DNA from: Eledone cirrhosa
Lineage: Eukaryota
NCBI GenBank assembly: GCA_964016885.1
Contig: OZ024740.1
Span: 56,358,001-56,422,000 of the forward strand
DNA: 64,000 bases
Reading direction: 5' to 3'
The notes below the pieces were generated by a model. It saw only the letters and a list, made by a program, of their open reading frames with translations, did no database searches and was not told the origin of the DNA. Made by a program: the position numbers and the translations under genes. The stretch's first letter is position 1, and the number at the start of each line of letters is the position of its first letter. Of the stretch, positions 9,511 through 64,000 are shown piece by piece.

Positions 9511-10347
9511 TTTTTTTAAAGTTGGTGCCACCATATGTCTTTAATTAATTAGTAATATTTAATCGGCAAAAAAATAAAACATTACTTCAATGTTTATTGT
9601 CAATGTTATCTGTTCTTGACAATACACTCAGCAACTCCAGACATGTTTCAGTTTTATTAGATTTCCTCTGCAACGCATAGCACTCTACATATATTTCAGA
9701 TTTGTGATAAGACCAGGTACACTTGATATTAATCACTGAGTAAAGATTTACATACCTTAAATATGATGACGCTAACTCAACTTTTAAATGAGCGTGGGGC
9801 CTCTGGACAATTTCTTTCAGTCTTTTCACGCACACACACACACACACACACACACACACACACACACACACATATATATATATATATATATATATAATGT
9901 TTAATATAGAAATAGCATTTCTATATTAAACATTGTATATATTCTACTATGTATTTAGTACCTTACTTACTGTGGTTATCCCCGATTGAACCCGACACAC
10001 ACACACACACACACGCACACACACATATATATATATATATATTTATATGTATATGTATATATATATATATATATATTTCAATAGGCATAAAGGTGTTTCT
10101 CATATAGCACATTTGTATTACATTGCAAACCCGCTTTTACATTTTACAAGTTTCAGAGGTGAGATACCAACTCGTTAATTCTGAACACAGCGAGAAGCTA
10201 AAGATCTTTAAACAACTTTTAAAATGTTCTACAACTGAAAATTGTCCCATTGTTTTATTGTCGATTAACAATTACTGGAAATCTATGTTATTTCATTAAC
10301 TTAAAAACTATGAAAAAATTTAAACAAACCAAATTTAATATACTTAC

Positions 10348-10505
10348 CAAGAAGAAATTTTAAATAGCTTAAGGAAAGTCGCAAAACACAGGCTTTGTTG
10401 AGACGTTGTGGTGAATTAGCTACGAGTGGCACGCATTTGGAAAGTTCCTCAAAATAACAATTTATTTTATCTCGCCGTAACTTCTCGCTGTAATTACGCC
10501 ATGAT
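10348..10505 (-). CDS. bHLH domain exon of a bHLH-PAS factor (Methoprene-tolerant/CLOCK-like)
   Basis: tttgcAG acceptor and GTAAGT donor. Translation (R)SWRNYSEKLRRDKINCYFEELSKCVPLVANSPQRLNKACVLRLSLSYLKFLL matches the RNxSEKxRRDKxN...EL...VP...RLDKxxVLRL pattern of bHLH-PAS proteins. Phase 2 to phase 1. Confidence 0.9.
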
Positions 10506-11159
10506 CTGCAAATAAGAGTAAAATAATACATTTTCTTTCACGGAAGCATGGTATATAAACAATTGTTTCACTGGGTCAGGACTGGATGGACCAAAATGCT
10601 GTTTATGCCAGCTTCTGATTTCACGGTGCCTCAAACAAATATCCAAAACATTGTACATGAAACTAAGTCATTCACCATACAAATGAGGGCTACAAACTGA
10701 TACACTTAGAGGGCACTCTATTGCTTTAGCTTTCTCTATCATTCTAATTAAAAAGATGAAAAATTATTTAAAGGGCTGGTGGAACTGGGAAAGCCAAGGG
10801 GGCCATGTACCCCCCCCCCCCCCACATTAATAATATTTTTCTCCCCAAAATACCAACACACACACATCTATTTACATAAGCGCTACAATTTATGAACATG
10901 TGATGTAAAGATTGATGGGAGATCCTCCCTGGTTGACCTACATCCAATCCAGGCCCTTCTCAAGTCCAGAATATTATAGGTTGTCCAATCTATAACATTC
11001 TGGACTGAATAACACGAATAATATATAATTATTCCGAGCATCTACAGTTATCTCCCTCACATCGATCGATCGTGGGTTTACTTCCCCTTTAGGAAGTGAG
11101 TGTTTCAGCACATGCGTATTCGTACAGTTGTTTTTCCTTTTCCGTACAACTCATTTAAA

Positions 11160-11200
11160 CCGAGCTGATGATCCGAATAAGGTGAAACAATTGTTCTCGG
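11160..11200 (+). ncRNA. minimal type I hammerhead ribozyme motif
   Basis: CCGAG-CTGATGA-tcc gaataa ggt-GAAA-CAATTG-TT-CTCGG. Stem III is the palindrome ACAATTGT; stem II is weak. Confidence 0.75.
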
Positions 11201-12799
11201 TAATGGTGAACTAATTTATGTGGAACTATTTATATATATATATATATGAAGACAGATATAATATCTGTCTTCAAGAAACCACTGGTAAATGATATAATTA
11301 TCTTATGTTGTTTATTACATAAATATATATAACGAAGGAAGTGTGGTAAGGAACCAGGTGGACCATAACGCATCAGAGTACTCAATACTTAGGGTAGTAG
11401 AGTGGGTAATAAGAAAATGTTCAAGAACCCGACGGCAGAACTCAAGCCGTTTCGACGGCTATTTCTGAACTAAATTAGATTTTAGCGTGGTAATAAATAG
11501 CCGAACTTGTAATAGGAAAATGTTCAAGAACCCGACGGCAGAGCTCAAGCGGTTTCAACGACTATTTCTGGACTAAATTAGATTTTTAGCGTGGTAATAA
11601 ATAGCCGAACTTGAGCTTTGCCGTCGGGTTCTTGAACATTTTCCTATTACAAGTTCGGCTATTTATTAACACGCTAAAAATCTAATTTAGTTCAGAAATA
11701 GCCGTCGAAACGGCTTGAGCTCTGCCGTCGGCGTCAATAACTGGATAAGTTATTGGGAAAACGAAGGAAGGAGGGAAGGAAAGCAAAGGGGAAGAAAAGA
11801 GAAAACAGTAACAAAACAGCGAAAAAACAACAACAAACCGAGCAATATGCGAGCAACTATAAGGTAGGAAATCCAAGACCACTCGATAATAGAACTTAAG
11901 TTCGAGACTGAGTGGTCGAGAGGAACAAGACACACGTCCGATCGCCGCAGTTGTAAGTGAGAAGAGAACTGCTAAACGGTTAGGTGAGGGAGTGAAAGTG
12001 AGAGGGAGAAAGGGAGAGGAAGAAAGTGGGATAAGAGTAGATAGGGAGAAAGGGAGGGGAAGAAAGAGGGGTGGGTGAGAGTAGAAAGTGGCGAAATAGG
12101 TAGGTAGAAGGGGAGAGATGAAAGGTCAGAGCGAAAAACATGATGAAATATATGGAGAATAGATATGGCTGTGTAGTTGCTATTTAAGGTAACTTAAAAT
12201 GCAGTGGGAATACGAATAAGGCAAGAACGGGGGGGGGTTAGGGTTGCAAGGTATTAGCGTCCGTAGGTGGTATGCCGGTTGAGCACTCGATGCTCGCGCA
12301 GAGCAGAGTATAAAATTATAAAGAACGAGGAATCAGTGTTGATTCATAAAACAGTGGTAAAAGTAGTAGCAAATGACAAACAATATGCGGTGGCAGGTGA
12401 CGCATGAACGAATACGGCAGCTTGACAAAGTAATGGACTAACGAGAGTGGATAGAAAGATGATGATGATGGGATTATTGAACCAAGGAAAAGGCCGAAAT
12501 AACAGGATGCTAATATGTACTACAGATGAATAACAGCTGAGATGTTTGAACACACAAAACATATCTGAAGATCCTTCGACTGCAGATTCGGGTGCGATCT
12601 GTAACAGATCTTGCCTCGAGCTGATCGACGTAGAAACTTGTTTAATACGTTAATAAATGTGAGATGATGCAACACTGGTTCCTCGTTCTTTATAATAATT
12701 ATATATATATATATATATATATATATATATAAGTGGTTACACAACAGTTAGTTCACCATACCGAGGACAATTAGCGGCTAATCAGCGGATCCTCCATTA

Positions 12800-12837
12800 C
12801 GAGCTGAGGATCCGCTAAGGTGAAACAATTGTTCTCG
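12800..12837 (+). ncRNA. minimal type I hammerhead ribozyme motif (same family as 11160)
   Basis: CGAG-CTGAGGA-tccgctaaggt-GAAA-CAATTG-TT-CTCG. Confidence 0.7.
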
Positions 12838-61404: not shown

Positions 61405-61595
61405 AATAATTGTTTCTACTTTAGACACAAGGCCAGCAATTCCCCAGTGCATTACTGGTACTTTATTTTATCGACCCCGTAAGGATGAAAGGCAAAGTCA
61501 ACCTCGGCGGGATTTGAACTCAGATCGAAAAGGGATGTAACTATGCTGGAAAGCATGGCGTCCGATCCTCTACCGATACTGCCAATCCACCGCCA
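61405..61595 (-). mobile_element. SINE with TSD-like repeat aatctcagaataataat
   Basis: Full-length copy; the direct repeat is at ~61393 and ~61595. Confidence 0.87.
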
Positions 61596-62574
61596 ATCTC
61601 AGAATAATAATATTCGTTAGGCGGCATGACAAATTGAAAATTGTAACAGGCAAGGCTAGCCACGACACCGAAGCAACGAAAAAACCAACAGGTTAATAAA
61701 CAAACCTGGACTGTCTCAGAGGCAGAGTGTCATTTCTTCGATAGGTTTCTATCAATCTTAGATCAACAATCCTACTTACGCAAGTATGCAAGATTTTGGT
61801 GTTTGAAGACCGAACTGTGGATTCACGTTATCAACAGGTTTCCGTTCTGTACCTTGATCCGGTGTGGTATGAAGTAGCAAGCCACTGTTGTTAGCAGCGG
61901 TTAATGCCTCAATTATCACGTGCTTTTTCCCAACAAGGGGTTTGGTGGGCAAATTCAAAATGTGAATAAGGGAAGCGTGTTCCCTGCACAAACCGAATGA
62001 GAAGCACTCGACCAGGCGTTATTAAACAAATATAAATAATTAATCAATCAATGGAATTGTCTAATTAAATTAATTAATTAATTATTAGGCCTAGAAGATA
62101 ATAATACTAATAGAAGTTTAGTAAAATCGAAGCTTCTATATATAATTACATAATAAACAACACAATATAATTATTCCTTTGCCTTTTCTACGGAAATACT
62201 TCACACACACACACACACACACACACACACACACACACACACACACACACACACACACACACATATATATATATATATACAATGATATTAAATAAATGGA
62301 AACTATATTTATAAAACCATATTTATTTTATTATATATATTTCAAGGGCAACCAAGACAACATTGGTACGCTTTCATCAGATAAAATACAAATTTTGTTT
62401 TACAAATAGAGACATACCCATGAAAATCATACCTGATCGGTTGGAAATTCACTGGATAGTGGAAATATATTAGGGATTATTCAAACTTATGTGTGAATAT
62501 GCATATGTATATGTAAATGAAAAACAACCGTTTATTTAAATGACAACCGTTTTATTTAGCTAGCCATGCCCTTT

Positions 62575-63155
62575 TCAGGACAGCTCGTCCTGCATTGGGT
62601 CCCAACTGACACTCAGCTCTCACCTGTGTCCCCAAGAAGCTGTAGCACGCGACAGCGGCCACACCCCGGTAAACCGCCTTGGCTGACGGGCCGAACCAGG
62701 TTGAGGGTAGCCGGACGGGTCTGAAATCCCCAGGTGAGTTAGATAGGGGATGCCTATCTTTGCATGCGAAGACTGGACCCGGCGGAGTGAGTGGAGGAGG
62801 ACAACATCGTCCCAACGGTCACAAAGGCGGCGACAGCAAGCGGTGTTGAGCGCTAGGGCACGGCAAGGCACTACAGACGTCGTGGCCATCCACTGCAGCC
62901 AAGGAACTCCCTGGTCGTGACGGTCCTCCGTACCACCGGATTCTGGCTTCTGCGGCCGAGTGAGTGGGGCCGTCACTGTGCACTGGCCCTCCTACTATAA
63001 ACCTTTCCCGCACAGGTTTCTTCTTTAACGTGCCCCCACTGTCCTCGGACCTGCAAGTCAAGGATCGGCTACCACAGCCACCTTCGCGCCCACGGCAGAC
63101 GGGAATAAGAATGAAGAATATGTCATCATCGTTTACGATGGACAACCAAGACATA
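62575..63155 (+). mobile_element. GC-rich segment, probably the 5' UTR of a non-LTR retrotransposon
   Basis: GC-rich island ending in a short ORF start that is truncated by (CA)n. No diagnostic protein motif. Confidence 0.35.
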
Positions 63156-63454
63156 CAACACACACACACACACACACACACACACACACACATATATATA
63201 TATATATATATATATATATATATATATATATATGTGTGTGTGTGTATATATATATAAGTATATATATATATAAATATATAAACGTAGCGCAAATATTTAT
63301 GAAGAAGATCCTGTAAGGCGTGAAAGCAGAGATTCCTTGCTTAAACCTTAATCTCTACTAATAATAACACACACACACACACACACACATATATATATAT
63401 ATATATATATACACACACAAAGATCGGAATTAAAGTATTCCGCAGTTCACAGTA

Positions 63455-63710
63455 ATAATAATTGTTTCTACTTTAGGCACAAGGCCACCAATTACCCAGT
63501 ACATTACTGGTACTTTTTTTATCGACCCCGTAAGGATGAAAGGCAAAGTTAACCTCGGCGGGATTTGAACTCAGACTGTAAAGGGACGTAACTATGCTAG
63601 AAAACATGGCGTCCAACCCTCTACCGATACTGCCAATTCACAGTAATAATAATTGTTTCTACTTTAGGCACAAGGCCAGCAATTACCAGTGCATTACTGG
63701 TACTTTAATA
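63455..63710 (-). mobile_element. SINE plus partial copy
   Basis: Same family as 3594; ttcacagtaataataatt is duplicated. Confidence 0.83.
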
Positions 63711-64000
63711 ATAATATTAGCTCGAATAACAGAGAATTTTCATCTGAGCTCAAATACAAATGTATTACGCAGAGAGAAGTGTGTTACACAGTGAGAAGTG
63801 TGTAAAAAATTATTACATGTGAGTTTAACCATTACTGTATGGAGTCAGAGATTTGATTCTGACTTAGTTTTTTTCTATTTAATTGCTAACCTGTAGGTAT
63901 TGTTCTCCATACAGTAACGGTTAAACTCACATGTAATAATTTTTTACACACTTCTCACTGTGTAACACACTTCTCTCTGTGTAATATATTTATATATATA

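Follow-up and report, generated by a model that had tools for sequence, protein, structure and literature searches.

Inverted duplications at (TA)n tracts of Eledone cirrhosa are insertions of Penelope-like and hammerhead elements with two fixed ends

The inverted repeats (IRs) in a 64,000-nt stretch of the Eledone cirrhosa genome (the window) are insertions of at least 15 families, among them Penelope-like elements (PLEs) of Hydra-like and Neptune-like type as well as non-autonomous hammerhead elements. In each family two 3' termini are fixed, a tailed one (A) and a tail-less one (B) located 38-135 nt upstream, and a two-armed insertion is a head-to-head pair in which one arm ends at A and the other at B, with (TA)n at both ends. 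Both arms derive from one template haplotype and each of them is 5'-truncated on its own. PLEs are already known for inverted 5'-truncated copies, a one-sided tail and insertion at (TA)n (PMC8557442); the A and B ends, the shared template and the independent truncation are added here. The insertions are probably made by PLE proteins, which would use their own RNA as well as that of non-coding hammerhead passengers. The loci analysed were the best-scoring copies rather than a random sample, and all evidence is genomic.

Inverted repeats of the window and their families

The first-pass annotation had described about 15 unrelated inverted duplications abutting (TA)n, at a high local density and with uniform outward polarity. 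All 16 duplications were recovered at the coordinates given in that annotation when the window was re-checked, two of them (42364-42972 and 45885-46610) belonging to the same family. An automatic scan detected 25 local IRs; in 17 of these a (TA)≥4 tract lay no more than 10 bp from an end, where 6.3% would be expected (binomial p = 3e-15), and the count was 0 in five 6-mer block shuffles. (TA)n was touched by 14 of the 16 listed IRs, nearly always with one end only. No (TA)n contact was found for 22395-22506, as already noted, nor for 11410-11730, which had been placed at TA. Among the listed IRs only 29337-40021 has both ends directly on TA, and there the right arm overshoots the end point of the left arm by ~75 nt. 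In most others the second arm runs on as a tail of 38-135 nt followed by its TA tract, and in 21089-21746 and 48073-48612 it is prolonged by several hundred bases or more. Several elements extend well past the IR by which they had been delimited, e.g. the GIY-YIG element at ~19440-21746. The coordinates of the elements are collected in Table 1.

An ORF or hammerhead core, located in the element itself or in sibling copies, revealed the polarity of 10 of the 16 IRs (12730, 18698, 21088, 22395, 29337, 41617, 42364, 45036, 45885 and 56389), and in all ten the 3' ends point outward, in agreement with the earlier claim. The same search gave no linked ORF or full hammerhead, and no readable polarity, at 9897, 11410, 17630, 48069, 50690 and 63761. 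Tailed and tail-less anatomy was seen in several copies of 11410, 17630 and 48069, while 9897, 50690 and 63761 are represented by few copies. The density proved not to be special to the window, as four 8-kb stretches at round coordinates elsewhere in the genome held 14 IRs, 9 of them at TA. The window thus appears typical of this genome, with a background density that rests on a small sample of 32 kb.

Table 1. Elements of the window, with arms, tails and hammerhead cores
Element	Position	Strand	Features
Hydra-like PLE	19440..21417	-	GIY-YIG end of ORF 21030-21443, 99-bp repeats, long 3' region; end near (TA)n at ~19440
Hydra-like PLE, predicted hammerhead core	19594-19638		within minus-strand element 19440..21417
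Hydra-like PLE, inverted arm	21418..21746	+	atypical; stops inside ORF, not at family terminus
F1 (Hydra-like PLE)	42270..42970		tailed arm minus (428 nt, 89-nt tail), tail-less arm plus (272 nt)
F1	45794..46607		tailed arm minus (754 nt), tail-less arm plus (53 nt)
F1	13016..13123		tail-less arm minus joined to tail-only arm plus; absent from first-pass annotation
F6 (hammerhead; 10-bp stem I, long stem II)	44905..45410		near-perfect palindrome 45039-45410; ~135-nt tail on left arm
Hammerhead family 18698	18612..19020		perfect palindrome 18701-19020 centred on native 6-bp palindrome; ~89-nt tail on left arm
Hammerhead family	41618..41965		IR 41618-41917; ~48-nt tail on right arm
Hammerhead-core family	12732..12936		IR 12732-12867; ~68-nt tail on right arm
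IR 22393-22509	22393..22610		~100-nt tail; hammerhead core in sibling copy near 27220; off (TA)n here
F5	17580..18410		IR 17630-18410; 42-50 nt tail on left arm
F8	48073..49053		IR 48073-48612; right arm a partial tandem up to (TA)n at 49054; several fixed termini
Family with 103-bp tandem duplication	11330..11731		~80-nt tail; right end off (TA)n here; siblings with one-tail anatomy
Short IR 9897-9933	9897..9995		~60-nt tail (IR scan)
Short IR 50689-50808	50689..50875		~67-nt tail (IR scan)
IR 63759-63990	63700..63990		short extension on left arm (IR scan)
Retrozyme palindrome, left arm	29337..34605	-	11.3 tandem 467-bp units; tail-less end (unit position 392/393) on (TA)n
Retrozyme palindrome, right arm	34601..40021	+	11.6 units; tailed end (unit position 467) on (TA)n
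Predicted minimal type I hammerhead core	39688..39718	+	one copy within 467-bp unit (core search)
Neptune-like PLE, tailed arm	56355..57808	-	RT fragment joined via internal deletion to 3' terminal module and 38-nt tail
Neptune-like PLE, tail-less arm	57809..58134	+	same internal deletion junction; ends on (TA)32

The PLE affiliation put forward in the first-pass annotation is supported. A single ORF with RT and GIY-YIG, as in EN+ PLEs, was found for four of the 16 IRs (three families), and a hammerhead core with stem I was predicted from the sequence in seven families (the GIY-YIG family, the retrozyme, F6 and the 18698, 41617, 12730 and 22395 families). Only the retrozyme had a match in Rfam among these hammerheads (HH9, 37.7 bits, below the gathering score of 52), with the predicted core of the full left-arm units on the minus strand; otherwise the Rfam scan of the window gave only microsatellite-driven miRNA matches. 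None of eight hammerhead candidates reached a significant z-score on energy folding, which is the expected outcome for minimal motifs of the dimer type.

F1 was aligned to the GIY-YIG ORF of the window (39%, E 2e-24) and, over thumb and EN (E 2e-5), to the sibling copy L079, in which a single ORF matched RVT_1 (E 7e-10) and GIY-YIG (E 9e-6); F1 itself had no Pfam match at 0.01. As described for the Hydra clade (PMC8557442, section 11), the CxCX5C linker is present in F1 and in four sibling loci of the GIY-YIG family, CxxC and CxH surround the conserved E and N in both families, CCHH is absent from the F1 translation, and both insert in (TA)n. In contrast, the hammerhead core of F1 is degenerate, and the likeness rests on the C-terminal motifs. 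The relatives are proteins of ~700 aa, with the top match from a coral, and no solved structure resembles the PLE protein. The arms of the F1 insertion at 13016-13123 do not overlap, and it therefore shows no inverted repeat.

Sibling copies of the Neptune-like element contain an ORF of 905 aa with RT, DKG, a CX2-5CxxC linker, CCHH and, at the C terminus, GIY-YIG. These motifs and the 38-nt tail correspond to the Neptune clade, taken here together with Nematis. The window family differs from that clade in its long microsatellite-rich 3' region and in recurrent internal deletions that end at one place in the 3' module, where the hammerhead core is degenerate.

The 10.7-kb palindrome at 29337-40021 is built of a young 467-bp retrozyme, and its arms overlap by 5 nt at the junction (34601-34605). 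The TA-flanked IR at 49163-49584 has short terminal inverted repeats, which we take to be typical of Tc1/mariner non-autonomous elements. A pogo-like fragment suspected at 28150-28570 was not confirmed.

Two ends and one template

Two-armed insertions were found at 25 of 36 retrozyme loci and were head-to-head in every case. In 24 of these 25 one end lay at unit position 392-399 and the other at 451-467 (p = 8e-7 as compared to a coin toss). In contigs from an independent run the retrozyme likewise stops at TA, with 398 and 467 as the unit positions. The lengths of the two retrozyme arms were not correlated (rho 0.27, p 0.2). The same A and B anatomy was found in all 14 determinable pairs of F1, whose copies were collected with a query excluding the tail, in 6/6 pairs of F6, in 7/7 of the 18698 family and in 9/11 of the Neptune-like family. 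Exceptions to the one-tail rule were L173, L005, L131 and L141, and in the window the arm of 21089-21746 that ends inside the ORF. That the arms begin at two different fixed sites of one template is an asymmetry which the first-pass annotation did not contain.

The haplotype at position 312 was identical across both arms in all 25 two-armed retrozyme loci (5 B/B, 0 mixed; p = 6e-5), and locus-private alleles were common to both arms in L163, L171, L174, L175 and L177. In 40 arm pairs from five families the arms shared 44 non-majority alleles, in comparison to 8.8 expected from other copies, and yet differed from one another almost as much as from other copies (2.2% and 2.7%, respectively, in F1). 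The arms thus start alike and then age separately.

Both arms of the Neptune-like insertion in the window carry the same internal deletion junction, which no other scored copy has (best 40 of 1403 and best 40 of 1153 candidates). This fits one cDNA having been copied by the other, unless the deleted source copy is missing from the assembly.

Junctions had 0-3 nt of microhomology or a few extra bases, or were placed on short native palindromes. At insert-free retrozyme junctions at least 1 nt of microhomology was seen in 15 of 18, as compared to 47% expected (p = 0.002), and 7 of the 25 junctions had 1-7 extra bases. The microhomology of F1, measured against one reference copy, was too noisy and was discarded. 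Several palindromes are perfect; one centre is common to three loci of the 18698 family, and the centres of F6 cluster at hammerhead stem I.

Origin of the palindromes

We consider it probable that both cut ends are primed on one RNA and that the products are then joined with 0-3 nt of microhomology. The GIY-YIG endonuclease would cut both strands, with a stagger leaving two 3' ends, and a protein dimer would start reverse transcription at each of these ends, with A used by one and B by the other, the template being the same RNA (or RNAs of a single source). The resulting antisense cDNAs would be joined 3' end to 3' end by a template jump of the RT or by end joining, and then filled in. One-armed insertions may arise when only one end is extended, and the long retrozyme arms may come from concatemeric or circular RNA, with possible further growth after insertion. 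From the earlier interpretation the PLE affiliation, the outward polarity and the two cDNAs joined at their far ends are retained. Its self-complementary (TA)n target appears dispensable, since the two-armed retrozyme L160 was inserted outside TA sequence, where it has a duplicated target of up to 14 bp and 2-3 nt of overlap at both element ends, and since inverted PLEs with target duplications of 8-10 bp have been published (PMC3846280).

The main alternative is that the cDNA, or an antisense RNA as proposed earlier (PMC3846280), folds over at the 3' end and serves as its own template, that the endonuclease cuts the copy back to the tail boundary, and that asymmetric deletions later shorten either arm. 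As the whole explanation we regard this as unlikely. It agrees with the haplotypes and private alleles common to both arms, the unique Neptune-like deletion, the perfect palindromes with recurrent centres and a mild excess of near-symmetric junctions (7/25 for the retrozyme, p = 0.04). However, it predicts a tail-less arm contained inside the tailed arm, whereas in F1 the tail-less arm reached further 5' in 9 of 14 pairs and the arms did not overlap in 4 of 14; the Neptune-like L122, L144 and L145 also break this geometry. Moreover, B-ended arms exist alone between TA tracts (L199, L201), and loops of 0-1 nt at the centres would suit two separate cDNA ends better than a hairpin. A mirrored variant is present in L159, but variants are not mirrored across the arms in the array of the window or in L151, where the pattern fits A and B starts on one unit of a two-unit periodic template. 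Later deletion near the palindrome centre could mimic independent truncation.

Simple fold-back is thus insufficient because of the fixed A and B ends and the independent truncation. Double priming is in turn probably not the sole step, because certain junctions seem to be partly DNA-templated; in certain events a stretch of one arm may have been copied from the other cDNA by snap-back before meeting the second primer. Collision of two enzymes on one RNA predicted an excess of tail-only arms, which was not seen, short tailed arms being no commoner than short tail-less arms.

It is very improbable that two independent insertions entered one (TA)n tract in opposite orientation and the intervening DNA was lost later. 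Tracts are indeed reused, and nested or neighbouring copies are common (L203; 42128-43085 of the window), but no TA tract lies between the arms, the one-tail rule holds in 24/25, hammerheads of one family that are paired on opposite strands face outward in 11 of 12, and the haplotype concordance in 25/25 largely refutes this explanation. MITEs or foldback DNA transposons targeting TA, a reading to which we give slightly less weight still, are suggested by the IR at 49163-49584 and by the reuse of a centre in one family; they should give copies sharing both ends and centre, with fixed symmetric termini and a constant structure, and the opposite was seen in six families, in which arm length and centre vary among copies, the ends are asymmetric and the arms carry RT, GIY-YIG or hammerhead sequence. 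Least credible is an assembly artefact from fold-back chimeric long reads, which would concern chiefly the 10.7-kb palindrome with its 99.85% alike arms, since its flanks are unmirrored, 25 loci have different junctions but the same two termini, older IRs have arm identities of 85-97%, and the contigs of the independent run show the same ends.

Relation to known systems and implications

With EN+ PLEs the elements share 5' truncation, the head-to-head inverted copy at the 5' junction, the tail at one end, partial tandems, microsatellite targets, junction palindromes and target duplications of 8-14 bp, as far as described in PMC8557442 and PMC3846280. Published tails of 30-40 bp are called optional there (Craig et al. 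2021, PMC8557442; Arkhipova et al. 2013, PMC3846280), whereas those found here are 38-135 nt long and near-obligatory, one per two-armed insertion. The same sources explain inverted copies by self-priming or endonuclease resolution, while the arm geometry here favours two primed cDNAs.

The anole PLE PAc (Poseidon), for which a dimer is predicted, was shown in vitro to cut and extend both strands of an AT-rich target and to have two RT start sites, which delimit the tail (Frangieh et al. 2024, PMC11167929); this agrees with the scheme proposed here. In contrast to our findings, the main text of that study gives no link to inverted arms and no rule of one site per strand, and describes no start-site difference between strands and no primer-template homology, where we found overlaps of 2-3 nt.

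Non-LTR retrozymes have been described as AT-rich tandem non-coding units with a minimal type I hammerhead each (Cervera and de la Pena 2020, PMC7229834; Li et al. 2026, preprint 10.64898/2026.07.22.740005), and the 467-bp units are of this kind, judging by the predicted motif. The arrays described in these sources are head-to-tail, whereas 25 of the 36 loci here form head-to-head palindromes whose A and B ends on (TA)n are of PLE type. This connects the arrays with PLE machinery and speaks for their having been laid down at insertion.

Non-overlapping inversions such as 13016-13123 have the form of L1 twin priming, where two target ends prime one RNA. In L1 the internal site is arbitrary and nothing is duplicated by the inversion, in contrast to the fixed second site and the mostly overlapping arms found here, from which palindromes result.

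A wider reading, somewhat less likely to be right than wrong, is that PLE integration is two-headed. The dimer would cut both strands and make one cDNA per end from two programmed sites of one RNA, the tail would be the spacing between the start sites, and retrozyme arrays would be written at insertion by two opposed rolling or run-through reactions.

The formation of PLE inverted repeats and tails is an open question according to PMC8557442, and many copies here break the arm geometry that would follow from self-priming on an antisense template (PMC3846280). The one-tail rule, the template sharing and the independent truncation provide sharp predictions for the in vitro system of PMC11167929. 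The palindromic retrozyme arrays are structural evidence for the use of PLE machinery, which was until now argued from distribution and phylogeny. If the two-headed reading is true, the palindromes left by it at (TA)n in this genome would number roughly 10^5-10^6. Should the small sample be representative (9 TA-anchored IRs in 32 kb), the genome of E. cirrhosa has such palindromes as one of its major features, with possible consequences for double-stranded RNA, for microsatellite growth and for repeat annotation, where palindromes look like MITEs.

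Inverted repeats of the window and the families that form them

Self-comparison of the window recovered all 16 inverted repeats of the first-pass annotation, which had described all but one of them as abutting (TA)n and, where polarity was readable, as having sense strands that point outward. Fourteen of them adjoined TA and the remaining two did not, while the outward polarity was confirmed, with 3' ends facing outward in all ten repeats of readable polarity. Polarity was unreadable in six, and sibling copies of three of these (11410, 17630, 48069) have the tailed/tail-less anatomy. 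The window has 36% GC and approximately 140 TA tracts of at least four units besides the large array. Of the 25 local inverted repeats that an automatic scan detected in it, 17 ended within 10 bp of such a tract, as compared to 6.3% expected; in the block-shuffled window sequence used as control, the scan detected none. TA contact was limited to one end of the repeat in nearly all cases, the opposite arm running on as a tail. As 14 inverted repeats, nine of them at TA, also turned up in four 8-kb stretches sampled at round coordinates from four chromosomes, the density in the window is typical for this 3.0-Gb genome, whose repeat landscape is reminiscent of octopus genomes. Among the fetched loci, 11 of 12 same-family hammerhead pairs faced outward.

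Three of the inverted-repeat families are coding Penelope-like elements (PLEs). Siblings of the Neptune-like copy encode a 905-aa RT and GIY-YIG ORF with a Neptune-type linker, CCHH and DKG. The motifs CxCX5C and CxxC..E..N..CxH, described for the Hydra clade in section 11 of PMC8557442, are present in the Hydra-like family F1, whose related proteins have about 700 aa, and in one further element (see table). Judged by its sequence, the 10.7-kb palindrome at 29337-40021 is built from a 467-bp non-coding unit that is arranged in two arrays and bears a predicted minimal type I hammerhead, i.e. a non-LTR retrozyme. Hammerhead cores were found in five further families. In four loci of one of the hammerhead families, F6 (L217, L227, L231, L233), a very abundant SINE-like family has a fixed position just upstream of the core.

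Two TA-flanked elements have short terminal inverted repeats beginning CAGGGT and presumably resemble non-autonomous Tc1/mariner elements; therefore, the TA-abutting inverted repeats are not all PLEs. No further copy of the longer one (49163-49584) was present among the fetched loci.

Features of the window by family, with coordinates and observations
Feature	Coordinates	Observation
Retrozyme palindrome, left arm (-)	29337-34605	
Retrozyme palindrome, right arm (+)	34601-40021	
F1, Hydra-like PLE	42270-42970, 45794-46607, 13016-13123	Hydra-clade motifs
Further element	19440-21746	Hydra-clade motifs
Neptune-like PLE	56355-58134	
F6, hammerhead family	44905-45410	
18698 family, hammerhead	18612-19020	
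SINE-like family, ~190-350 bp	3597-5384, 44466-44807, 51814-52149, 59380-59559, 60155-60214, 61404-61594, 63456-63707	
LINE fragments	43223-44350, 45490-45852, 5854-6855	Matches to RT and PHD at 43223-43783, a combination we take to be that of RTE-type elements
Candidate broken pogo-type transposase fragment	28150-28570	Noted by eye
TA-flanked elements	49163-49584, 16437-16512	Termini beginning CAGGGT
Tandem pair of ~280-bp units	13314-14023	Between TA tracts, 34-bp inverted piece at junction; probably another family of TA-flanked inverted insertions
Short inverted repeat	52324-52620	Around TA-rich spacer, then degenerate telomere-like CCCTAA repeats

Termini and template sharing of the arms

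F1 was sampled with a 112-bp query lacking the tail; 40 of 814 candidates were scored, 30 loci were taken, two duplicates were dropped and the three window copies were added. Among these best 40 of 814 candidates and the window there were 15 head-to-head pairs, and each of the 14 determinable ones combined a tailed end (site A) with a tail-less end (site B), 89 nt apart. For another 16 F1 loci from the scored candidates the fetched DNA contained no neighbouring partner arm, in several of them because the copy ran past its edge. In a first batch selected for a long tailed arm, a tail-less partner was found in 8 of 9. The one-tail rule was also kept in the Neptune-like family (38-nt tail, 9 of 11 pairs), in F6 (~135-nt tail, 6/6) and in the 18698 family (7/7).

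Template sharing was seen in five families, whose 40 arm pairs had 44 non-majority alleles common to both arms vs 8.8 expected. Arm-to-arm distance was only slightly below arm-to-other-copy distance (lower in 29 of the 40 pairs, p = 0.004), and together these values indicate that the two arms were alike at first and were not homogenised later. The arms also appear to have been truncated independently. The main rival explanation, though an unlikely one, is self-priming in which the copy is trimmed where the tail begins and deletions follow later. In the same F1 sample (best 40 of 814 candidates and window) the tail-less arm extended further 5' than the tailed arm in 9 of 14 pairs, and the arms did not overlap in 4 of 14, the window copy at 13016-13123 being one of these. 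Because a fold-back copy must sit inside the template arm and cannot add a missing tail, such pairs would need two primings or later deletion.

The retrozyme sample consisted of the window and 35 fetched loci deduced from the listed matches (37 of 388 candidates scored; 61 matches unlisted). Among the matches listed and the window, 25 of 36 loci were two-armed, all head-to-head, and 11 were apparently one-armed, one of these being clipped by the fetched interval. Among the matches listed, the end pair at unit positions 392-399 and 451-467 recurred in 24 of the 25 two-armed loci (exception L173), and both arms carried an identical haplotype in all 25, five of them of the minority type. Locus-private alleles were likewise common to both arms. 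Microhomology of 1-3 nt was commoner than chance (15 of 18 insert-free junctions, p = 0.002), seven of 25 junctions had 1-7 extra bases and seven of 25 were near-symmetric (p = 0.04), again among the matches listed. One two-armed insertion (L160) lies in non-TA surroundings, where up to 14 bp are duplicated; thus the target cut would be staggered, and the self-complementary (TA)n tract, which the first-pass annotation had suggested as the target, is unnecessary.

Unit variants with a period of 3 occur in the left array of the window only, which suggests growth or exchange after insertion; periods of 2 and 4 were found elsewhere (L152, L173, L178), and the periodic variants as a whole point to multimeric templates or post-insertion block duplication. 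In two loci (L158, L165) the haplotype changes partway along the array, which suggests a switch of template or a mixed array as the source. Public contigs filed under numerous coded organism labels also contained words of the retrozyme (39322-39788), with a very high depth in one of three contig sets and a low depth in two. Related species, contamination or transfer are possible readings, given in no order of preference.

Double priming as the probable mode of integration, and its alternatives

We infer that, probably, a PLE protein dimer would cut both strands at an AT-rich site, after which both 3' ends would serve as primers for reverse transcription of a single RNA, at the fixed sites A and B. 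The two cDNAs would then be joined 3' end to 3' end via a template jump or end joining, and partial snap-back may sometimes precede the joining. The termini, the orientation, the sharing of a template and the junction features are observations, and the cutting, the dimer, the RNA template and the route of joining belong to the proposed model. Double-primed insertion with two joined cDNAs had been proposed from the window alone; the arm geometry favours it, but some loci look snap-back-like and count against it. The window Neptune-like arms have a common internal deletion absent from every other scored copy, one family has three loci that form perfect palindromes centred on an identical native 6-bp palindrome, F6 palindrome centres cluster at the hammerhead stem, and the window arm 21418-21746 terminates within the ORF. 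Together with the near-symmetric junctions and the period-3 pattern, these results suggest that some events involved conversion or copying by snap-back. No excess of tail-only arms was found. In the Neptune-like family, internal deletions stop at almost a single base, positions 619-621 of the 3' module (L089, L122, L184, window 56538/57992), which we read as a template-jump or stalling hotspot.

The palindromes are unlikely to be assembly artefacts, against which argue the unmirrored flanks and the contigs of an independent run, where the retrozyme ends in TA at both termini. For the families compared here MITEs are excluded, as centres and arm lengths vary among copies of a family.

Published accounts and significance

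PMC8557442 and PMC3846280 describe inverted truncated copies, one-sided tails of 30-40 bp and insertion into (TA)n, and PMC3846280 explains the structure by self-priming on an antisense template. In PMC11167929 both strands are extended and the tail is bordered by two RT start sites; its main text does not tie these to inverted arms. PMC4209133 notes pairs of hammerheads that lie on opposite strands at a distance of 100-700 bp, and retrozymes are described as tandem arrays in PMC7229834 and a 2026 preprint (10.64898/2026.07.22.740005). The available text of PMC8969392 and PMC9977147 holds nothing further on mechanism. In the literature, supplements and older subscription papers aside, we found no statement of PLE double priming or palindromic retrozyme arrays.

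The TA-abutting pattern is genuine, a PLE signature that was already known and occurs here at very high density. What is new is the rule set drawn from numerous young copies: it speaks for double priming at two fixed sites rather than for self-priming as published, and it connects the retrozyme arrays with integration by PLEs.
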